Assembly: GCA_963787205.1 (NCBI GenBank)
Contig: CAWBCD010000023.1
Span: 99,587-163,586 of the forward strand
Source of the DNA: an uncultured bacterium
GTDB taxonomy: Bacteria > Bacteroidota > Rhodothermia > Balneolales > DATFMH01
Direction of reading: 5' to 3'
Length of the DNA stretch: 64,000 nucleotides
The stretch's first letter is position 1. Each line of letters starts with the position of its first letter. The notes below the pieces were generated by a model, which did no database searches, was not told the DNA's origin, and was given only the letters and a program-made list of their open reading frames with translations. Of the stretch, positions 1,725 through 61,231 are shown in pieces. Made by a program: the position numbers and the translations under genes.

Positions 1725-2093
1725 CTAAGGCAGACAGGCACCAATACTTTTCAATACACCTTCTATATCTTGAATTACTTGATCATTTGTAAATCTGATA
1801 ACAGTTATACCAAAACCATTCAAATCATCTGATCTTTTTTGATCTTGATGTTTTTGCTCTTTCAGATTATGAAAACCTCCATCGAGTTCCAGGACAAGCT
1901 TGACGGAATGACAATAAAAGTCTACTACGTAAGTCGCTATTGGGTGCTGTCTCCGAAACTTATACCCTCTCAGTTGTTTTTTCTTTAGTCGTTGCCATAG
2001 TATACGTTCCGTACTGGTCATTGTCTTACGCAACTCTCTTGCTTTTTCGAAAATATATGGTGGTGCTCCATAAAACATCTTTGGTCTTTGCAT
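1725..2093 (-). CDS. DUF559 / Vsr-like endonuclease domain protein
   Basis: ARELRKTMTSTERILW, FRRQHPI, YVVDFYC, LVLELDGGFH, and DQKRS motifs. Confidence 0.92.
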   Translation of the reverse strand: MQRPKMFYGAPPYIFEKARELRKTMTSTERILWQRLKKKQLRGYKFRRQHPIATYVVDFYCHSVKLVLELDGGFHNLKEQKHQDQKRSDDLNGFGITVIRFTNDQVIQDIEGVLKSIGACLP

Positions 2094-2285: not shown

Positions 2286-3467
2286 TCATCCCTTCAATAA
2301 ATCACGCGCAATTATAATACGCTGCACCTCCGAGGTACCCTCACCGATTTCGAGAAGCTTTGCATCGCGCAGAAAGCGTTCAACATGGTATTCTTTGGTG
2401 TAGCCATAGCCGCCATGGATCTGAATGGCATCGAGCGAAGATTGCGTTGCCGCTTCGGAGGCATAGAGCTTAGCCAATGCGGCTTCTTCTGTATACGGTT
2501 TACCCTGATCTCGGAGCCATGCAGCGCGCAAAACCAATAGCCGGGCAGCTTCGTACTTGCTCTTCATATCCACAATTTTCCATTGGATCGCCTGATTTTT
2601 CCCTATCGGCTTTCCAAATTGATGCCGCTCTTTTGAATACCTGATCGACTCTTCCAATGCACCCCGTATAATTCCAACTCCAAGTGCGCCTATACCGACG
2701 CGCCCGCCATCCAGAACTTTCATCGTGTCATAAAATCCGTGGTTTAGCTCTCCCAACAGGTTCTCTTCCGGGACCTCCACATTGTCGAGATACAGGGCGA
2801 CGGTATCCGAGGAGTTCATACCAAGCTTTTTGATCTTTGGACCATGAGAAAAGCCCTCCCAGTCCGATTCGACAATAAACGCACTAATGCCCTTTGCTCC
2901 CAGCTTTGGTTCAGTCAGTGCCAGGATCACAAAGATCTTCCCGACTGATCCTTGGGTGATAAACATTTTGGATCCATTCAGAATCCATTTTCCATTCTTG
3001 AATTCGGCAGTCGTTTTCATGCCGGAAGAATCACTGCCGGAACCGGGTTCGGTAAGTCCCCACCCGCCCAACACTTCTCCGCTTGCCAATTGACTCAAAT
3101 ATTTCTTCTTCTGATCTTCATTGCCGGCAATAGCAATATGGCCTGAGCACAAGGAGGTGTGAGATGCCATGGTTAAGGCCAGTGAGGCATCCCAGCGTGC
3201 GATCTCTTCCAGTGCAAGGGCAAAACTGACGACATCGGTCCCGCCCCCGCCATATTTCTCTTCATGATACATGCCGAGCAGATTCATCTCACGCATTTGC
3301 TCTATCAGATCGTGTGGAAATTTCTTTTCCTCATCACGCTCTACCACTCCCGGAGCGACATAACGCTCAACGAAATCACGTACACTGTTGCGAATAAGTT
3401 GCTGATCTTCCGTCAGATCGAATGATAAGCCAGCCGTTTGCGTCTTGAGTTCTGCGTCTCGAGTCAT
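2286..3467 (-). CDS. acyl-CoA dehydrogenase
   Basis: LTEPGSGSD, NGSKMFIT, QIHGGYGY and IGEGTSEVQR motifs. Confidence 0.95.
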   Translation of the reverse strand: MTRDAELKTQTAGLSFDLTEDQQLIRNSVRDFVERYVAPGVVERDEEKKFPHDLIEQMREMNLLGMYHEEKYGGGGTDVVSFALALEEIARWDASLALTMASHTSLCSGHIAIAGNEDQKKKYLSQLASGEVLGGWGLTEPGSGSDSSGMKTTAEFKNGKWILNGSKMFITQGSVGKIFVILALTEPKLGAKGISAFIVESDWEGFSHGPKIKKLGMNSSDTVALYLDNVEVPEENLLGELNHGFYDTMKVLDGGRVGIGALGVGIIRGALEESIRYSKERHQFGKPIGKNQAIQWKIVDMKSKYEAARLLVLRAAWLRDQGKPYTEEAALAKLYASEAATQSSLDAIQIHGGYGYTKEYHVERFLRDAKLLEIGEGTSEVQRIIIARDLLKG

Positions 3468-3702
3468 GAGTCACCCAGATATTTTGTTTTAGATAATTTT
3501 TGAATCAATGCATAAAACATTTTTTTCTATCTCTCCGATCTTAATTATTAATTCTGGAAAAGACATCTGAATTCAGATAATTAAGGTTATTTGAAATCAT
3601 GAATGGCGTTTCCAATTCATATGTTGATCCATTTTTGTATGAATCGTTATATAAAAAGGATACTCCGTCATCAAAAACTTACATGAAATCTCAAGACTAT
3701 TT

Positions 3703-4005
3703 TCACCCGAAATTCCAGTTAACACCCCGACCGGTCTCCGGTTGGGGATAGTGCCACAAAACAGCTCCCTGATCGCAGGCGTACATGCAAGTCCCACATT
3801 CGATACAGTCTTCAAACTGGAAGTGTACCTTGCCCTCCTCGTCGACGGTATAACAATTAGCCGGGCACACATAGGTCGTGCAAAGATGCGTACACTTTGA
3901 GTTGCAGATATCAGTATCAACCTCAATGTGAGGGGTAGCATCCGATTTGCCCTGATTACGGTAATTAACCAGTCCCAGTCGTTCTGCAATGCTCAGTTTT
4001 TTCAT
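3703..4005 (-). CDS. fixX: FixX-type ferredoxin
   Basis: CPANCY and CIECGTC...C motifs; directly downstream of fixC. Confidence 0.88.
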   Translation of the reverse strand: MKKLSIAERLGLVNYRNQGKSDATPHIEVDTDICNSKCTHLCTTYVCPANCYTVDEEGKVHFQFEDCIECGTCMYACDQGAVLWHYPQPETGRGVNWNFG

Positions 4006-4010
4006 GACGT

Positions 4011-4045
4011 TAGTCCTGAGTAATGAGTATTTAGTATTGAGAAAT
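4011..4045. repeat. degenerate heptamer array, GAGTATT type, 5 units
   Basis: TAGTCCT GAGTAAT GAGTATT TAGTATT GAGAAAT in the fixC-fixX spacer. Confidence 0.7.
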
Positions 4046-5484: not shown

Positions 5485-5517
5485 TAATTATGAATTTTGA
5501 ATTATGAATTTTGAATT
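5485..5517. repeat. degenerate heptamer array, GAATT(A/T)T type
   Basis: TAATTAT GAATTTT GAATTAT GAATTTT GAATT just upstream of fixC. Confidence 0.75.
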
Positions 5518-43712: not shown

Positions 43713-44502
43713 AACAATAGAACAGGCTCATTCTGAACTCTGCCGGCATGGTTTCCCCGAACGGGTTGACGCGGCCGTTATCCTTGGCTCGGGGCTCGGA
43801 GGATTTGAGCAGCGATTAACGGACCAAATTACAATTCCCTATGATCAAATTCCGGGATTCCCTCCAACAACAGTACCCGGACATGAAGGGGCACTGCATT
43901 TTGGATTGATTGGTTCAAAAAAAACGCTCGTCTTTTCCGGCCGCTTCCATCACTATGAAGGTCATCCCTTTGAGCGAACTCTTTTGCCGGTGCGACTTGC
44001 CCGTTCTTTCAACGCTCATACCCTTTTCGTTTCCAATGCGGCAGGTGGCATCAACTACCGCTTTCATATCGGCGACCTGATGCTCATCGACGACCTCATC
44101 AGTCTTGGCGTCCGTTATGGAGTCAACGACAAGCCGGTTTTATCCGGATACCGGAATGATGCAATGGTCGACCGTGTAACCAAAATTGCCACACAACTGG
44201 GACTCCACCTGGTGCGCGGCACCTACATCTATGCTAAAGGCCCATCCTACGAAACCAAAGCCGAGATTCGTGCATTTCGCAGACTTGGAGCAGATGCAGT
44301 AGGCATGTCCACTGCGCCCGAATTGCTTGAAGCACAGCATCTCGGGATGCAAAGCGTAGGTATCTCTTTGATTACCAACATGGCTGCCGGCGTATCGCGT
44401 AAGAAACTGGCGCACGAGGAGATTAAGGAAGTGGCTGCAAAACGAGCCAAAGACTTTGCCCGGCTTGTGGAGACTTTGATTCAGAAGGTGTTAAGGTGTT
44501 AA
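43699..44502 (+). CDS. purine-nucleoside phosphorylase (trimeric type)
   Basis: ILGSGLG, VPGHEG, GRFHHYEG, GPSYETKAE, VGMSTAPE; start set at MSRPET. Confidence 0.93.
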   Translation: MSRPETIEQAHSELCRHGFPERVDAAVILGSGLGGFEQRLTDQITIPYDQIPGFPPTTVPGHEGALHFGLIGSKKTLVFSGRFHHYEGHPFERTLLPVRLARSFNAHTLFVSNAAGGINYRFHIGDLMLIDDLISLGVRYGVNDKPVLSGYRNDAMVDRVTKIATQLGLHLVRGTYIYAKGPSYETKAEIRAFRRLGADAVGMSTAPELLEAQHLGMQSVGISLITNMAAGVSRKKLAHEEIKEVAAKRAKDFARLVETLIQKVLRC

Positions 44503-44532
44503 GGTGTTAAGGTGTTAAGGTGTTAAGGTGCT
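44485..44532. repeat. 8-mer tandem repeat (AAGGTGTT)x5 plus one variant
   Basis: Read directly; contains the PNP stop codon. Confidence 0.95.
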
Positions 44533-44611
44533 AAAGTCTAGGGTGTTAAAGTTATTATCCCTGCGACGAATAAATCACAACTTACGTCATTATGAGCACC
44601 TCATTTTGATT

Positions 44612-44646
44612 TAATTCAAAATTTAGAATTCATAATTCAAAATTCT
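44612..44646. repeat. degenerate heptamer array, AATT core
   Basis: TAATTCA AAATTTA GAATTCA TAATTCA AAATTCT abutting the photolyase stop codon. Confidence 0.7.
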
Positions 44647-46108
44647 AATTACCGTATTTCTCCAGATACTTCTTCAACTTAACCTTCTTCCTCGTGCTGT
44701 CGCTGCTCATGTAGCGGATCTTTCCAAAAATGGGACGTTCGAACCACGGACGATCGAAACGGCCAAGTATCCAAAAAATGCCCGAGTAACTGTTTGGATC
44801 ACGCCCATCCATGGCATACTTGTTATTCAGCTCGATCATGATTTTCAGGGCATCCTCAGGCGCTTGGGTCCACTCCAGGATCTTCTTTCCCCATAGCATG
44901 CGCAGATAGTTGTGTATATAGCCCTCTTCGATGAGTTGCCGCTGCGCAGCATTCCATATTTCATCATGAGTTTGAGCCTGCTCGAACTGCTGCAGGCTGT
45001 AAATATATTCACGCGGGTCGTCTTTATGTTCTTCAAAGGTTTCGAGAACCCAGTCCGGCAGTGATTCAAACCTGGCGTAATCCGGAGTGTGGTGGCAAAA
45101 ATGATATCCGACCTCCCTCCACGTTATCAACTCATCCAGAAATTTTTCAATATAACTGTGCCCCTTGAAAAAGCCGCTTTTTTGCCCATTGTTATCTTTA
45201 ACCTGACTTAGATCCCATACTTTGGGTTGTCGATCCAGGGTTCCTTTAACAATTTCATAATCGGAAATTTTACCAAAATGAAGCCACGGACTTAGCCTGC
45301 TCGTCCGGTCGTTATCCGGATCATTCCGTTCTTTTCCATACTTGCTCAGGTCATTGTCCAAAAACCTGTTCATCTGTGATATGGCCGCTTCCCTTGTGCC
45401 CTTTATTTCGACCGGGCCGACCGAATGATCAATATCTAATTCTGCAATGAAAGAATCGATATCCTGCAGTTGATCGCCGGCATGCGGCCACTTTTTTGTA
45501 ATAGCCTCCGACAGAGCAATTTTGTCCGTGTTTTTCAGTTTTGACAGTGAATTTTCATCGGGTGGATTGGTAAAACAGTCCACAAAATGCCGCTGCATGA
45601 TCTTGCGGAAATGATAGGCGGAATAGGGAGCCTTATTGGTCATCCCCAAAGGTATAATTCCGTTGGAGTCGACGGTAATGTATGGCACGTTTACCTGTTT
45701 CGGCCAGCTTTTATTTCGCTCAGCCATGATGAACGTTGGGTATTCATCGGTGATGATCACCGCAGCCTGTTTTGCAAGTTCAGAAATCAGCTTATCCGCC
45801 TCACCCGGGGATGTTTCCAGATAGGGATAGTAGGTGATCCCATAATCTTTGCTGATTTCGTAATCCTCTCGCGTACTTTCCAGCAGAAACCAATGCAACC
45901 GGTCCGAGGCCCATCGATAGTTACAGATGATGCCTTCGTGAACCAACAAAGGGAGATCCAGGTTGTTGGCCCAACCAACCGCGTAATCGAGTGCATAATT
46001 ATATTCAAACCGGTGATGCGCCTGCATCCAGTACATCACATATTTTCCGTCGGGTTTGGGATCAAGGTCATTTCTGTTAAAAACCCTGTAACTGTTGATA
46101 TTCTTCAT
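44645..46108 (-). CDS. deoxyribodipyrimidine photolyase, class II CPD
   Basis: YVMYWMQ, SRLSPWLHFG, THDEIWNAAQ, NYLRMLWGKKILEW and DGRDPNSY; start set at MKNIN. Confidence 0.92.
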   Translation of the reverse strand: MKNINSYRVFNRNDLDPKPDGKYVMYWMQAHHRFEYNYALDYAVGWANNLDLPLLVHEGIICNYRWASDRLHWFLLESTREDYEISKDYGITYYPYLETSPGEADKLISELAKQAAVIITDEYPTFIMAERNKSWPKQVNVPYITVDSNGIIPLGMTNKAPYSAYHFRKIMQRHFVDCFTNPPDENSLSKLKNTDKIALSEAITKKWPHAGDQLQDIDSFIAELDIDHSVGPVEIKGTREAAISQMNRFLDNDLSKYGKERNDPDNDRTSRLSPWLHFGKISDYEIVKGTLDRQPKVWDLSQVKDNNGQKSGFFKGHSYIEKFLDELITWREVGYHFCHHTPDYARFESLPDWVLETFEEHKDDPREYIYSLQQFEQAQTHDEIWNAAQRQLIEEGYIHNYLRMLWGKKILEWTQAPEDALKIMIELNNKYAMDGRDPNSYSGIFWILGRFDRPWFERPIFGKIRYMSSDSTRKKVKLKKYLEKYGN

Positions 46109-47745: not shown

Positions 47746-47840
47746 CCTATCTCCTATCTCCTATCTCCTATCTCCTATCTCCTATCTCCTATCTCCTATC
47801 TCCTATCTCCTATCTCCTATCTCCTATCTCCTATCTCCTA
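47746..47840. repeat. perfect heptamer microsatellite (CCTATCT)x13.6
   Basis: Read directly, 95 bp. Confidence 0.97.
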
Positions 47841-51813: not shown

Positions 51814-52500
51814 ATGAAACAGAAACTTCCCGGTTACCTGGTTCACGCATTCACGGCGCTCGGTGCCGCACTGGGATTGTGGGCTCTGTTTGCAACAGCG
51901 GGACACCAATTTCAGCTGGCACTGTGGCTGCTGGCTGCTGCTGCCGTCATCGACTCGGTTGATGGCGCGCTGGCCCGCAAAGCACAGGTCAAAATCAGGA
52001 TACCGGAATTCGACGGAGGTCTCCTCGACAACATCATCGACTACCTGACATGGACGATCGTCCCCCTGTTCTGGGCATGGCAGGTGCTTTCTGTACCAAC
52101 CCTGGTTGTAATCATAGGCGGTATGGCCAGCGTCATTGGGTTCTCACGGACCGACGCCAAGACTGAAGATCACTTTTTCAAAGGATTTCCCAATTACTGG
52201 AACCTGGTTGTGCTGCACATGTACAGCCTGCATTTTAGTCCAATGGGTGCCAGCATCGGATTGCTCATATGCGTCTTGTTCGTATTTATACCGATGGTGT
52301 GGATCTATCCAACCAGATCTCTTCATTTTCGCAAAACGATGTTGATTCTTGGCGGACTCTACGGCATTCAGTTGCTGATCATGATCACATTGTTTCCTCA
52401 TATTCCGCTATGGCTGGCCTGGACGGCACTGATTTACCCGGTAATTTATTTCGCCGGATCTCTCTATTTGAATTTCAAACGTGAAAACGGTAGACGGTAG
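51814..52500 (+). CDS. pcs: phosphatidylcholine synthase-like CDP-alcohol phosphatidyltransferase
   Basis: VHAFTALG, DSVDGALARK..VK...P.FDG..LDNIIDYL, KTEDHFFKGFP..WN. Confidence 0.8.
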   Translation: MKQKLPGYLVHAFTALGAALGLWALFATAGHQFQLALWLLAAAAVIDSVDGALARKAQVKIRIPEFDGGLLDNIIDYLTWTIVPLFWAWQVLSVPTLVVIIGGMASVIGFSRTDAKTEDHFFKGFPNYWNLVVLHMYSLHFSPMGASIGLLICVLFVFIPMVWIYPTRSLHFRKTMLILGGLYGIQLLIMITLFPHIPLWLAWTALIYPVIYFAGSLYLNFKRENGRR

Positions 52501-52544
52501 ACGGTAGACGGTAGACGGTAGACGGTAGACGGTAGACGGTAGAC
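52487..52544. repeat. perfect heptamer microsatellite (ACGGTAG)x8.3
   Basis: Read directly; contains the pcs stop codon. Confidence 0.97.
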
Positions 52545-57199: not shown

Positions 57200-58417
57200 T
57201 CAGCTTATATTTTCAAAGATACCGGCGGCTCCCATTCCACCACCGACGCACATTGTTACCATTCCATAGCGGCTGCCCCGGCGTTTCATTTCATACAATA
57301 TCTGCGTCGTTAGTTTGGCCCCGGTACAACCCAATGGATGTCCCATGGCAATGGCACCGCCATTAACATTTACCTTCTCTTCGTCCAGCTCCAAATCACG
57401 AATAACAGCCAGTGACTGGGCAGCAAAGGCTTCGTTAAGTTCGATCAGATCTATATCACTCAGCTTTAACCCTGTTTGTTTGAGAACTTTGGGGACAGCT
57501 TTGATCGGACCTATTCCCATAATTTCGGGTGGTACACCAGCAACAGCGAAACCAAGATATCTGGCCATAGGTCTCAGACCTAGCGATTTGGCCTTTCCCG
57601 CACTCATCACGAGAACGACTGAAGCGGCATCATTCATTTGAGAGGCATTGCCAGCCGTGACCGTCCCTCCCACTTTGAAAACGGGTTTTAGTTTGGCCAA
57701 AACCTCAAGTGAGGTATCCGGTCTTGGCCCTTCATCAACCCTGAAATCCGAATTTTCAACAATTCGCTCACCATTTGCATCGATCATCTCGCGTTTAACA
57801 GCCACGGGGGCTATTTGCTCGTCGAAATAATGATTCTGTTGGGCATTAACTGCACGCATATGGCTGTGGTAAGCAAAAGCATCCTGATCTTCCCGGTTGA
57901 TATTATACTGCTCGGCTACACGTTCAGCAGTGAGTCCCATATTCAAATAAATACCAGGATGAGTCTCCACGATATCCGGATTTGGTCGCAGTACATACCC
58001 TCCCATCGGAACCTGGCTCATACTCTCCACACCTCCTGCAATAATAGCATCTGCCGCACCGGCCATGATACGTTCGGCGGCCTGGGCAATGGTCTGTAGC
58101 CCGGACGAACAGAATCGGTTCACCGTTGCCGCAGGTACGTCTACCGGCAATCCGGCAAGCAGGCTGGCCTGCCGGGCCATGTTCATGCCCTGCGATCCCT
58201 CAGGGAAGGCACACCCCAGGATGACATCATCTACCATACCTGCCTCTAATGCTGGAACACGATTTAGCAGTTCCCTAATAGCTATACTTCCGAGCGTATC
58301 GGGCGGCACATCTCTGAGTGATCCTTTATTTGCTTTTCCACACGGCGTCCGCACAGCCGCGACAATCACAGGAAAAGAGTCGTGAGTATTGGGTACTGAG
58401 TATTGAGAATTTGGCAT
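57200..58417 (-). CDS. fadA: acetyl-CoA C-acyltransferase (3-ketoacyl-CoA thiolase)
   Basis: [30 protein letters not shown] and MCVGGGMG. Confidence 0.93.
58377..58411. repeat. heptamer array, downstream arm of the four-helix-bundle cassette (inside the fadA 5' end)
   Basis: + strand GAGTCGT GAGTATT GGGTACT GAGTATT GAGAATT. Confidence 0.85.
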
Positions 58418-58773
58418 TACTTGTTGTTAAAGTTTTGAATCAGTTTATACAGCATTTTTTGTAATTCGTCAATTTGAATAGACAATGCTTCAAAGTTATT
58501 TGTATTCAAATAATGAAGATTATTCGAGATTATCAGTTGAGTTTCCAGCTCGTATATCGATCCATATGCGACATTTAAAAAATATTTAAATTCCGAATCC
58601 GAACCTCTTCCTGCACCTTCAGCAATATTAGAACTGATTGATACCACACTTCTGTGAATTTGTGAAATAAGACCATACTTCTCTTCATGTGGGTATGAGG
58701 CTGTCATTTTGTACACTTCGGTAGCCATGTCTACTGCCTTCTGCCATACCAAAAGATTTTTATACCTATGCAT
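58417..58773 (-). CDS. four helix bundle protein (23S rRNA IVP / TIGR02436, Avd-like)
   Basis: L.VWQKA, E.YGL.SQI.RS.VSI.SNIAEG.GR, FL..A.GS..ELETQL. Confidence 0.93.
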
Positions 58774-58835
58774 TCTGTTCTCCTCTGTGCCATTATCTAT
58801 ATAGAGGACACTTGAGTCAAATATGGCTTACATTA

Positions 58836-58870
58836 AAATCTCAATACTCAGGACTCGATACTCCATACTA
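58836..58870. repeat. heptamer array, upstream arm of the four-helix-bundle cassette, inverted relative to 58377-58411
   Basis: + strand AAATCTC AATACTC AGGACTC GATACTC CATACTA; the last unit contains the fadN stop. Confidence 0.85.
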
Positions 58871-61231
58871 GTTTCTCAGAGGCTTGCCCTTCTTCAAGGT
58901 GAATTCTATTCGTTCCTGGGTTTTCTTTTCGTGCAGGAGTTCTATGAATGCCTCACGTTCTAGTTTATGGACGTAGGATTCGGGTACGTACTGCGGCTCA
59001 TTCAGAAGTCCGCCGGTCATGATGTACGCCAGCTTTTCACCAATCAATTGGTCATAATCGCTGATATAACCGGCCTCGTGCATGATGTAAAGCGACAGTT
59101 TCAGTGCGCTATATCCTTCCTTACCCATGAGATAAACCTCACCAGATGCAGGCGGTCGATATCCCGCTTCTGCCATCGCCTTTGCTGATTCTCGTGCCGC
59201 CCTGAGCTGCAGATCTCTGTTCATGACAATCGGGTCCTCCCGCCGCAACAGATTCATCTGTCGTGCTTCGTATGCACTGGTGGCCACCTTGGCCATTCCA
59301 ATCTGCTGGAATGCTTCTTTCAAAAAAATCAGCGGATCCACGTTATTGTCATCCGGCATCCGGCTCATTGACCGTCGAAGGACTTCTGTCGTGCCGCAAC
59401 CGGCAGGGATCAGCCCGACGCCGACTTCAACCAGACCCGAATAGAGTTCATGATGTGCTACCACCCGGTCGGCATGAAGCATGAATTCACATCCACCTCC
59501 AAGTGTCTGGTTGTACGGAGCAAGGACAACAGGAATGGATGAATACCGGATCCTTCTGGAAGCATCCTGGAAGGTCATCACTGCCTGAGAAAGCAAATCA
59601 AATTGATTCTTCGACACGGCAGTCAGCACCTCGTACAGGTTGGCTCCCAGTGAAAAATTCGCCCCATCGTTGCCGATTACCATTCCCTGGAATTCATTCT
59701 CGCAGATATCAATGGATTTGAAAAGCCCCTCAATCACCGACTGGCCAAGTGTATGCCCTTTGGAATGGAACTCAAACAAAGCCACACCTTCTCCCATATC
59801 GATCAGGCTTGTCTCTTTATCGCTGGAAACAACTTTATTCGTTTTATACAGATCAGGGATGAGTACAGCTCCTTTTATGGGAGGCGTCTGCTCTTCAACT
59901 TTTCCGACGCCAAGATTGTAAAATGTCCCTTTCTTGTGATCATAGAATGATGTTCTGCCGCTGGCAAGCATTTTCTCCACCGAATCCGGAACATCATATC
60001 CTTCTTCTTTCATCCGGTCGGTTGTCTCTTTTACCCCGACCGCATCCCACTTCCCAAAAGGACTCATTTCCCAATTAAAACCCCATTGCATGGCACGATC
60101 AATCTCTTCAATGGAATCGGTAATCTCGGGAATCCGATTGGCGGCATATAAGAACAGGTCACGGTGAATCTCCCACAAAAAACGACCGGCCTTGTCATCC
60201 TGTTTGATCATAAACCGGAGTCGTTCACCGGTCGTCTTGTATTTTTCTTTTGCCTGGTCGACCGATGAAAACGAAATCTTCTGCTGTGGTTCATAATCCA
60301 GCGTGTCCACGTTTAGCACCAGGTATTGGGTGCCCTCTTTCGTCCTCACTTTCTTATAGAAGCCCTGACCTGCCTTGTTTCCTATCAGACCTTTATCGAT
60401 CATTTTCTGAAGGGTATCGGGCAACTTAAACAGTTCCCGCCGTTCATCATCCGGAATATTCGGATATAGATTCCGCGCCACGTGTCCCAAAACATCGATT
60501 CCGACCATATCGGCTGTTCGGAAGGTTGCCGCTTTGGAATAGCCGCTGAATGTACCGGTCAGGAAATCAACCTCCTCGATCCGCAGCTTTTTACTGAACA
60601 CCCATGGCATGATACTGGCCATGGAAAAAACACCGATCCTGTTTGCGATGAAATTCGGGGTATCCTTACACGTCACAACTCCTTTGCCCAGTAGTTTCCC
60701 GGCGAATCCAGACATGTATCCGAAAACAGCCGGATCGGTATACGCTGTTGGAATGACTTCCAGTAACTTCATGTAACGGGGAGGGTTAAAAAAGTGCGTT
60801 CCCAGAAAATGATTTTTGAATGATTCCGAACAGTGTTCACTCATTTCTGTAAGAGGAAGCCCGGAAGTGTTGGTAGTCACAACAGTATTTTGGCGGCGGA
60901 CTTCATCAATACGCGACATCACTTTCTGCTTGATATCCATCCGTTCAATGACCACCTCACAGATCCAGTCGGCTTCTCTCAGTTTGCTCCAGTCGTCATC
61001 GAAATTCCCGATCTGGATCCGTTTGGAAAAACCAGGCAAAGCAAGCGGTGCCGGTTTCATTTTGAGAAGTGCATCCAGTCCTTCTTTTACCAATGCATTG
61101 TGGTCTTCATTATCTTTTGCCGTGATATCCAGCATCAGCACATCGAAACCGGCGTTAGCACAGTGAGCGGCAATCTGCCGTCCCATCACGCCAGATCCAA
61201 GGACAGCAATTTTTTGAATACGGTAACTCAT
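58868..61231 (-). CDS. fadN: 3-hydroxyacyl-CoA dehydrogenase / enoyl-CoA hydratase (FadN type)
   Basis: VLGSGVMG, TNTSG, THFFNPPRY, KDTPNFIANRIG, LGGGCE and GKPLRN. Confidence 0.9.
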   Translation of the reverse strand: MSYRIQKIAVLGSGVMGRQIAAHCANAGFDVLMLDITAKDNEDHNALVKEGLDALLKMKPAPLALPGFSKRIQIGNFDDDWSKLREADWICEVVIERMDIKQKVMSRIDEVRRQNTVVTTNTSGLPLTEMSEHCSESFKNHFLGTHFFNPPRYMKLLEVIPTAYTDPAVFGYMSGFAGKLLGKGVVTCKDTPNFIANRIGVFSMASIMPWVFSKKLRIEEVDFLTGTFSGYSKAATFRTADMVGIDVLGHVARNLYPNIPDDERRELFKLPDTLQKMIDKGLIGNKAGQGFYKKVRTKEGTQYLVLNVDTLDYEPQQKISFSSVDQAKEKYKTTGERLRFMIKQDDKAGRFLWEIHRDLFLYAANRIPEITDSIEEIDRAMQWGFNWEMSPFGKWDAVGVKETTDRMKEEGYDVPDSVEKMLASGRTSFYDHKKGTFYNLGVGKVEEQTPPIKGAVLIPDLYKTNKVVSSDKETSLIDMGEGVALFEFHSKGHTLGQSVIEGLFKSIDICENEFQGMVIGNDGANFSLGANLYEVLTAVSKNQFDLLSQAVMTFQDASRRIRYSSIPVVLAPYNQTLGGGCEFMLHADRVVAHHELYSGLVEVGVGLIPAGCGTTEVLRRSMSRMPDDNNVDPLIFLKEAFQQIGMAKVATSAYEARQMNLLRREDPIVMNRDLQLRAARESAKAMAEAGYRPPASGEVYLMGKEGYSALKLSLYIMHEAGYISDYDQLIGEKLAYIMTGGLLNEPQYVPESYVHKLEREAFIELLHEKKTQERIEFTLKKGKPLRN

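Follow-up and report, generated by a model that had tools for sequence, protein, structure and literature searches.

In a stretch of 64,000 nucleotides (nt) from an uncultured member of the Balneolales (Bacteroidota), hereafter the window, to which all position numbers without a contig label refer, we found a gene for a four-helix-bundle (4HB) protein of the PF05635 family lying between a FadN/FadB-like gene and a thiolase gene (the fad junction) and enclosed by two inverted arrays of short tandem repeats, which we call its arms. Comparison of close relatives showed that such a unit of gene and arms is present, absent or replaced as a whole, and that it has been copied whole within its own genome. 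We are highly confident that the inverted-arm architecture is real and shared across the gene family, and we consider it probable that the cassette is a mobile or exchangeable unit. The best overall explanation, towards which we lean slightly, is that the 4HB gene, its leader and the two inverted arrays make up one small transposase-less cassette, similar to the intervening sequences (IVSs) of rRNA, which resides at junctions of protein-coding genes and is excised from RNA.

All parts of the locus lie on the minus strand. The 4HB gene (58417-58773, 118 amino acids, aa) is preceded by a FadN/FadB-like open reading frame (ORF) for a 3-hydroxyacyl-CoA dehydrogenase/enoyl-CoA hydratase (58868-61231; PF02737, PF00725 and PF00378), whose best NCBIfam match, NF052272, reaches 631 bits, under the cut-off of 999, and which itself has an acyl-CoA ligase gene upstream. 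It is followed by a thiolase gene (57200-58417; TIGR01930, 479 bits, cut-off 240.55). The 5' arm (58836-58870) is made of five tandem heptamers, TAGTATG GAGTATC GAGTCCT GAGTATT GAGATTT, whose first triplet is the stop codon TAG (58868-58870) of the FadN-like ORF. A leader (58774-58835) connects this arm to the start codon of the 4HB gene, and four bases past the TAA of the latter begins the 3' arm (58377-58411), AATTCTC AATACTC AGTACCC AATACTC ACGACTC, whose units are the reverse complement of the 5' arm family and are predicted to pair with it.

The inner four units of both arms are reverse complements at 24/28 positions (6+5+7+6), which confirms the heptamer arrays and the count reported in the first-pass annotation. 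Local alignment of the upstream flank to the reverse-complemented downstream flank gave a score of 19.0 (25/29), compared with 17.5 at the 99th percentile of 1332 mismatched pairs of flanks. When folded as RNA, the arms alone formed a duplex of -31.8 kcal/mol, compared with -12.4 +/- 3.4 kcal/mol when the right arm was shuffled 500 times; no shuffle reached the observed value (z = -5.6). Within the 511-nt sense RNA, the arms are paired in the minimum-energy fold, and the mean probability that left-arm bases pair with the right arm is 0.72. The long stem looping out the whole ORF, which had been suggested for the minus-strand transcript, does therefore form in silico. The same arm pair was also recovered by a genome-wide scan for inverted repeats, as one of 138 hits versus 11 in a reverse-not-complement control.

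The arms are not a peculiarity of the fad junction. The genome to which the window belongs (5.0 Mb, 48 contigs, 94.6% complete; hereafter our own genome, or G000) contains nine PF05635 matches, eight of them above the cut-off, and by eye all nine have short tandem repeats upstream and the reverse complement of these downstream. The repeat units nevertheless differ from copy to copy (GAGTATT, GAAATTT, GTGTTAAA, GATGACN, CAGTTAA, CTGGATA/CTCGATA, AACAAAT, TCGAAYR and an AAAGG type). Among genomes of the same order, 36/41 carry PF05635 genes, with 0 to 18 matches per genome. We aligned the 130 nt on either side of 37 loci (29 from relatives and 8 of our own) with each other after reverse-complementing the downstream flank, and used as controls upstream and downstream flanks paired across loci, which keeps the composition of the arrays (1332 pairs for these 37 loci, 6006 for the 78 loci below). 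Own flanks scored above the 95th percentile of the controls at 30/37 loci and above the 99th at 15/37, whereas only 2/37 passed the 95th percentile when aligned in direct orientation.

A cross-phylum sample restricted to the query's subfamily and to one genome per species (79 loci, one of them dropped for a short flank) gave the same picture, with 59/78 loci above the 95th and 22/78 above the 99th percentile, against 14/78 and 8/78 in the direct-orientation control. These loci come from Bacteroidota, Ignavibacteriae, Acidobacteriota, Gemmataceae (Planctomycetota), Acutalibacteraceae/Clostridia (Firmicutes), three lineages of the candidate phyla radiation (CPR), Nitrospirae, Desulfosarcina (Desulfobacterota), Kiritimatiellaeota, Caldilineaceae (Chloroflexi) and SAR324, and in the examples outside Bacteroidota the arms are visible by eye. 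Inverted arms around other PF05635 copies, as anticipated in the first-pass annotation, are thus found in our own genome, in the order and across phyla. Pairing of the whole 130-nt flanks with RNAduplex was also tried as an arm test and abandoned in favor of local alignment, as it separated poorly (12/37 own pairs below the 5th percentile).

The arm properties were summarized over the 87 of 116 loci with an arm score of at least 12.5. The arms have a median length of 28 nt; the 3' arm starts a median of 14 nt past the stop codon, and the 5' arm ends a median of 42 nt ahead of the start codon, some 5' arms reaching the ATG itself and others being followed by a leader of 40-120 nt. Among 78 periodic arms, the best period is 7 in 59, 8 in 18 and 9 in one. 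The 5' arm contains more G than C in 78/87 loci and the reverse in 5/87; given the inverted orientation of the arms, this G excess of the 5' arm holds whichever strand one reads. The unit type (GAGTATT/GAGATTT) is kept across phyla within the query's subfamily, and within the genus the arrays turn over fast. We further observed that arm similarity follows protein identity (Spearman 0.29, a value reached in 0/1000 permutations): similar arms (cosine >0.2) were found in ~1% of protein pairs under 35% identity, in 43% at 55-70% and in 83% above 70%. An internal template for the repeat unit, as in telomerase, was considered and rejected. A 9-mer of the unit does occur in 19/78 interiors versus 3.1% of controls, mostly at the edges where the arrays run on; five loci (L007, L050, L062, L069 and L089) have such 9-mers at least 27 nt from either edge, with no consistent internal copy.

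The comparison of alleles is what characterizes gene and arms as a unit. We examined 25 thiolase loci; leaving aside one with no fadN on its contig, they provide the fadN-thiolase junction of 24 genomes. This junction holds a PF05635 gene in five of them, namely our own genome and the relatives G003, G005, G032 and G002, and is empty in the other 19, with gaps of 37-195 nt. The empty alleles that the first-pass annotation had suggested seeking do exist, and the gene is not stably syntenic. The cassettes of our own genome, G003, G005 and G032 have GAGTATT-type arms in common and proteins that are 65-78% identical; G032 belongs to a different family of the order, yet carries the same fad cassette lineage. 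In G002, which is of the same genus as our own genome, the protein of the fad cassette is only 47% identical and the arms are of the TAGATTT/TAGACTT type. Three of the empty junctions (L015, L017 and L019) contain a cargo-less hairpin of inverted TGAATTT-type units, and another (L022) contains TGTCGGA x10.

Within the genus, 14 loci of G003 and G002 were mapped onto our own genome. An orthologous gene was found at two own sites (three loci), C17:52171 (L186, 65% aa identity) and C3:516300 (L188, 76%), while own C9:99804 and L187 of G003 are 52% identical and differ in their arms; L191 has no counterpart. Four junctions occupied in congeners lack the 4HB gene in our own genome, and two of these retain one or both arms of the relative's cassette: at C20:4506-4877 both arms are left as a hairpin with a loop of ~20 nt, and what is left at C16:174511-174882 is the array that forms the right arm in the G003 cassette. 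The third, C7:108910-109215, has an unrelated spacer, and the fourth, C48:50769-51064, has a solo GAGTATT-type array at a place where G002 harbors a cassette with GTCATTCAGTA arms. In four cases, counting that of G002 at the fad junction, the same junction is occupied by non-orthologous cassettes (47, 35 and 34% identity, and DUF559 versus 4HB). Two of them are in opposite orientation, own C28 versus L190 (35%) and own C3:516300 versus L193 of G002 (34%); as neither pair is orthologous, we rejected inversion of a cassette through its own arms. In the DUF559 case, our own genome has a DUF559 gene (C17:45948, within C17:45672-46513) at a junction where G003 carries a 4HB cassette (L184), which indicates that different small-gene cassettes share insertion hot spots.

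The window itself contains a second, decayed cassette (3440-3699, minus strand), flanked on one side by a 4Fe-4S ferredoxin-like ORF (3703-4005) and on the other by an acyl-CoA dehydrogenase gene (2286-3467). It consists of a 5' arm, TAGTCTT GAGATTT (3686-3699), a TGTAAG leader (3669-3685), a 3' remnant of the gene and a 3' arm, GTGACTC ATGACTC GAGACGC... (3440-3474); the 5' part of the gene has lost ~200 nt. Its intact ortholog is L195 of G002, the protein of which is 66% identical to that of the fad cassette. As leader and arm type are also common to both, gene, leader and arms were evidently copied together. Taken with the non-syntenic gene, the arms at other copies and the in silico stem, the occupancy of 5/24 supports the first-pass proposal of a transposase-free cassette of gene and inverted heptamer arms at operon junctions; the observations run opposite to those expected if that proposal were wrong.

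Concerning the protein, we regard the 4HB ORF of the window as a clear member of PF05635 / TIGR02436 / NF008911 on the basis of its profile matches: it scores 130.7 bits against PF05635 (cut-off 33.8; 3e-38), 126.1 against TIGR02436 (cut-off 24) and 141.8 against NF008911 (cut-off 137), in agreement with its earlier identification as a four-helix gene between fadN and the thiolase. The closest solved chains belong to 2GSC (1.1e-19) and 2RLD (2e-05), two Protein Data Bank entries with five chains each. A GxxRxxxSxxxNxxE motif has been described for the family (PMC3936711). Its R41, S45, N49 and E52 are present in the window protein; an alignment of 33 sequences shows no variation at Q38 and E52 and a conservation of 90% or more at R41, S45, N49 and G53, the first motif position being Q and not G. 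The isoelectric point (pI) of the protein is 6.4 and its net charge -1, compared with a family median pI of 8.84. No transposase domain was found in the cassette, the PF05635 and bAvd profiles being the only ones that matched the 4HB protein, and PADLOC returned no defence-system match. A search of the nine own loci for rRNA or other Rfam families yielded a single chance-level match (HtrA thermometer, E = 0.99).

How would an operon accommodate such a cassette? In the explanation we favor, the arms of a read-through transcript would pair into a stem of ~30 bp, looping out the cassette, and this stem could serve as a substrate for RNase III, as the stems of rRNA IVSs do. The cassette RNA would then be cut from the operon transcript, and both flanking host genes would stay expressed. 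The downstream gene may restart at an ATG placed at or in the 3' arm, which is poor in G and lacks stop codons more often than the 5' arm does; the cassette gene, in turn, may have its expression driven by a promoter-like site that the arms enclose. For RNase III processing of the cassette transcript taken by itself, for which the argument is one of analogy, we put the chances somewhat short of even.

Several features of the locus can be read along these lines. The leader of the fad cassette contains a TGTAAG motif (58827-58832), a sigma-70-like TTGACT-17-GATAAT site (58792-58820) that matches the consensus at 10/12 positions and is a consensus match only, and, in the 511-nt fold, a hairpin of CCTCT (58803-58807) with AGAGG (58782-58786) over the GAGGAG just before the ATG. 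TGTAAG together with a CCTC..GAGG pattern was also read in L049, L043, L052, L014 and L195; the functions that these leader features suggest are putative. On the downstream side, the first ATG of the thiolase gene (58415-58417) overlaps the TAA of the cassette gene as TAATG, and its frame runs through the 3' arm; an alternative GTG start (58367-58369) lies past the arm. Either start codon is possible, with Thiolase_N beginning at residue 17 of the 405-aa ORF. An in-frame ATG at or in the 3' arm opens the downstream gene in 4/7 cassettes read (the own and G003 fad cassettes, the decayed cassette and L195). In the decayed cassette, the acyl-CoA dehydrogenase ORF starts at an ATG (3467) inside the 3' arm and its Pfam domain at residue 19. 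In the remaining 3/7 the downstream ATG comes after the arm. Between co-directional neighbors, 66/68 cassettes follow the orientation of the neighbors; several recently polymorphic ones are antisense to theirs. In a Kiritimatiellaeota metagenome-assembled genome (L122:826-2740), a cassette with TAGTTTT / AAAACTA arms lies between groES (Cpn10, 1e-33) and groEL (Cpn60, 1.1e-45).

Two other roles in gene expression were considered for the arms and rejected. No terminator-like site was found within 57900-59300, which does not support a terminator function. A 5' arm acting as a stop device in all frames appeared conceivable, since stops in three frames occur in 35/87 left and 12/87 right arms, but the reversed-sequence control gave 28/87. 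The three-frame stops in 5' arms are thus a consequence of composition and period, and the fad 5' arm has stops in two frames only.

Tandem repeats of the arm type are frequent in our own genome. Applied to the 5.0 Mb, Tandem Repeats Finder (TRF) detected 395 arrays with a period of 7 or 8 and a copy number of 2.8 or more, the commonest units being AAAATTC (35 arrays), AATACTC, equivalent to GAGTATT (25), AATTATG (19) and AAATTAG (14), along with 19 arrays of the GTGTTAAR type (AACACCTT 11 and AAAGTGTT 8). The fad arms at 58836-58870 and 58377-58411 are arrays of this heptamer class. When inverted repeats with 7/8-periodic arms are sorted by spacer, six have spacers of at least 240 nt, and five of these enclose a PF05635 gene; another seven have spacers of 15-169 nt and no cargo. 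The cargo-less hairpins contain no gene remnants detectable by tblastn with 138 4HB proteins, which found genome-wide the eight intact genes and one remnant. In 20-kb samples, we counted 11 arrays in 346 kb from five genomes without PF05635 genes and 33 in 400 kb from five genomes that carry 11-18 of them. Array density is thus weakly associated with gene count; the sample is small, and related genomes are not independent of one another. G018, without any copy, had 6 arrays in 80 kb.

A number of observations weigh against our preferred explanation. Arm mismatches comprise 30 G·U pairs of the sense type, 29 of the antisense type and 79 transversions, that is, no wobble bias for either RNA strand, and sense and antisense duplex energies are alike across loci (15 vs 22, p = 0.42). 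At the fad locus the antisense arm duplex is the more stable one (-39.1 vs -31.8 kcal/mol), and the energy of the whole 511-nt fold is unremarkable (z = -1.6), 6/100 shuffles folding equally well. A stem, moreover, leaves the tandem 7-8-mer build and the G-rich 5' arm (78/87 loci) unexplained. Arms are present at 6/7 loci with a convergent downstream gene and hence are not shaped by operon context alone, while 7/37 and 19/78 loci fail the 95th percentile in the flank test. As for mobility, no target-site duplication was recognisable at five polymorphic junctions and no exact breakpoint could be defined there. Whole intergenic regions differ between the alleles, so ordinary homologous recombination in the flanking genes could explain the replacements.

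The absence of a wobble signal and the arms in non-operon contexts keep alive a purely DNA-level role, in which the arms would be recombination substrates only (hairpin or cruciform, template switching, gene conversion) and the RNA stem a by-product. We consider this rather unlikely as a full account, even if the symmetry of the arms at the DNA level and their footprints at the empty sites C20:4506-4877 and C16:174511-174882 suggest that recombination does make use of the arrays. Complementarity is indeed Watson-Crick symmetric, arms occur whatever the transcriptional context (6/7 convergent loci) and the same unit families are scattered over the genome (AATACTC 25, AAATTAG 14, GTGTTAAR type 19). 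Many arrays are also perfect and long, which suggests ongoing expansion, and assemblies of relatives often break beside 4HB genes (at least 10 of the 150 matches listed). On the other hand, no breakpoint, target duplication or excision product was seen and the cassette encodes no recombinase. Replaced cassettes carry their own, different arms, so at those sites exchange did not proceed via shared arm homology, and the cargo-less hairpins are without detectable gene remnants, the one remnant found genome-wide notwithstanding. Mere coincidence, namely a gene that happens to lie between two of the heptamer arrays common in intergenic DNA, could appeal to the 395 arrays in 5.0 Mb, many of the GAGTATT family, and to the arrays at other junctions of the window. 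We give it hardly any credence: own flanks exceed mismatched controls that keep composition (30/37 and 59/78, against 2/37 and 14/78 in direct orientation), five of the six long-spacer 7/8-periodic inverted repeats enclose a PF05635 gene, and the same architecture recurs in many phyla.

It is also conceivable, although we find it clearly improbable, that the repeat units are iterons for a pentameric 4HB protein, specific to each paralog, bound on DNA or RNA and serving autoregulation or the spread and maintenance of arrays in trans, as in RAYT–REP/REPIN systems (RAYT, REP-associated tyrosine transposase; REP, repetitive extragenic palindrome; REPIN, REP doublet forming a hairpin). The rise of arm similarity with protein identity (1% under 35%, 43% at 55-70%, 83% above 70%) would fit, but would arise just as well if gene and arms were inherited together. 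The family median pI of 8.84 would also fit, but the window protein is not basic (pI 6.4, net charge -1). Some solo arrays in other parts of the genome have the same units as resident cassettes, but the commonest unit, AAAATTC (35 arrays), has no resident cassette. In its favor we can further cite the conservation of the unit type across phyla within the query's subfamily and the nucleic acid binding of the distant relative Avd, a homology supported by profile matches; array density and gene count, however, are only weakly associated in the 20-kb samples (G018, without copies, 6 arrays/80 kb), and GxxExxY genes have similar arms but no 4HB protein. A broader version would join PF05635 proteins and 7-8-nt arrays in one system, with an autonomous cassette and with solo arrays and hairpins as its footprints or as non-autonomous offspring that the protein seeds, recognises or maintains in a unit-specific way. 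This would reach furthest, and we regard it as a long shot.

The closest parallel to the IVS-like cassette that we favor is the IVS of 23S rRNA. In Coxiella, this element has a protein of the same family in its loop and a 28-bp terminal stem that is cut in its middle by RNase III in vitro (PMC4990558). Mobility has long been suspected for the ORF-bearing rRNA IVSs of Leptospira and Coxiella, the ORF being seen as a factor that promotes movement or brings a benefit (PMC4990558). Like the cassette, 23S rRNA IVSs have a PF05635 ORF in the loop, no transposase and a sporadic distribution, and measure about 430-760 nt, with terminal inverted repeats and a stem of ~28 bp. Unlike it, they sit in helix 9, 25 or 45 of 23S rRNA and not at the junction of an mRNA operon, and RNase III excision has been shown for them, while for the cassette it may be proposed by analogy only. 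The cassette arms are arrays of tandem 7-8-nt units. Members of the family have also been reported among the rRNA insertions of CPR bacteria (bioRxiv 10.1101/2024.02.27.582315) and, in CRISPR surveys, inside cas loci or linked to CRISPR arrays (PMC3936711, PMC10910872). In the literature we covered, mostly the main texts of open-access papers, no description was found of inverted tandem-repeat arms around PF05635 genes. We view the cassette as an IVS-type element outside rRNA, with arms of short tandem repeats not previously described in that literature.

Avd, the accessory protein of diversity-generating retroelements (DGRs), binds nucleic acid and its partner reverse transcriptase. The resemblance of the PF05635 family to Avd has been pointed out in a DGR survey (PMC10053308), and we could detect the distant similarity of the 4HB protein to this family of four-helix-bundle fold (NF033474 4.9e-07, PF22296 8.6e-07, phrog_3206 7e-10). 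The scores, however, remain under the Avd cut-offs (NF033474, 30 vs 80 bits; PF22296, 29.9 vs 40 bits), and no reverse transcriptase (PF00078) was found in our own 94.6%-complete genome, where the positive controls matched. The relatedness to Avd stated in the first-pass annotation hence holds as a distant one and does not make the cassette protein a DGR Avd; a retroelement mechanism is unlikely for the same lack of PF00078. The cassette also differs from DGRs in having no template or variable repeats, its flanks being short tandem arrays.

RAYT transposase genes are flanked by REP/REPIN repeats. As in the 4HB cassette, a single small gene stands between inverted copies of a short repeat that is also dispersed without the gene. 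RAYTs, in contrast, are Y1 (HUH) transposases, which the 4HB gene, without a known catalytic motif, is not, and REP repeats are palindromes of 20-40 nt and not tandem 7-8-mers. The short tandemly repeated repetitive (STRR) sequences of cyanobacteria are heptamer tandem repeats. TAACTGA heptamer direct repeats have been described in Beggiatoaceae, Cyanobacteria and Bacteroidetes and proposed to be translational regulators, with one inverted set (MacGregor, PMC4679880). The STRR and TAACTGA arrays are like the arms in being intergenic 7-nt tandem arrays that often abut start or stop codons, vary in copy number among close relatives and are phylogenetically sporadic. The TAACTGA paper deals with direct repeats and makes no link to PF05635, the terms 'four helix' and 'intervening' occurring 0 times in its main text (PMC4679880). 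Genes of the GxxExxY/PF13366, DUF559 and GIY-YIG types, finally, resemble the 4HB cassette in size, junction position and inverted arms; these are nuclease folds that could drive homing, whereas the 4HB protein has no nuclease signature.

To our knowledge, PF05635/TIGR02436 genes have no known function outside DGRs, even though they occur in many phyla and members of this order carry as many as 18 copies in one genome. Our analysis presents them as packaged in the manner of rRNA IVSs, with tandem 7-8-nt repeats forming a long stem whose loop contains the gene, and as exchanged as a unit at operon junctions. What was an annotation curiosity would thereby become a genetic element of defined composition, whose arms, leader and protein can each be tested, and the ORF-bearing rRNA IVSs would be linked to far more numerous elements that reside in mRNA operons. 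Insertion at junctions together with flanking short repeats may also be a reason why PF05635 genes turn up in cas operons or near CRISPR arrays, and the heptamer repeats of bacteria gain a candidate partner. If the one-system reading were true, it would explain the sporadic heptamer repeats (STRR, TAACTGA) of Cyanobacteria, Bacteroidota and Beggiatoaceae and provide a first function for one of the most abundant uncharacterised protein families.

A practical point is that the arms probably break assemblies made from short reads. Of the 150 PF05635 matches listed, at least 10 begin less than 500 nt from a contig start (for example G025:C24:158, G019:C251:9 and G037:C255:92), as expected if repeat arms interrupt such assemblies.

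Further arrays and small-gene cassettes were noted in the window and in our own genome. Arrays lie at other junctions of the window (4017-4045, 5486-5517, 44485-44549, 44612-44650, 47746-47840 and 52487-52544) and include CCTATCT x13.6, ACGGTAG x8.3 and AAGGTGTT x8.2; the etf/acyl-CoA dehydrogenase operon has one at each of several junctions. Inverted repeats also surround small genes of the GxxExxY, DUF559, GIY-YIG-like and IS200/RAYT-like types in our own genome. A DUF559 gene of the window (1725-2093, minus strand, 122 aa; PF04480, 7.6e-38) is enclosed, within 1690-2140, by a 28-nt inverted repeat, AAAGTCCCCTTTAGGGGATTTAGGGGTC / GACCCCTAAATCCCCTGAAGGGGACTTT; of the two DUF559 genes of our own genome, one has such a repeat. 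Palindromes of a similar GGGGATTTAGGGG type occur elsewhere in the genome. Periodic inverted arms of the CACGGA type were found at 2/4 full-length GxxExxY (PF13366) genes (C10:6560-7210 and C21:79226-79707 of G000). The C10 copy has an ~85-nt direct duplication of the 3' coding end of its host gene on both sides and looks like a target-duplicating insertion. IS200/RAYT-like genes with REP-like palindromes were recognised by reading the sequence at C12:171076-171537, C12:192380-193009, C6:288383-288985, C3:518335-518787 and C29:84575-84952. Lastly, G000:C19:36953-38529 contains a 37-nt palindrome (ACAGAAGGCATCTCCAAAGTTTTGGGATGCCTTTTGT) in nine or more copies at a spacing of 192 nt, and no ORF between them exceeds 28 aa.

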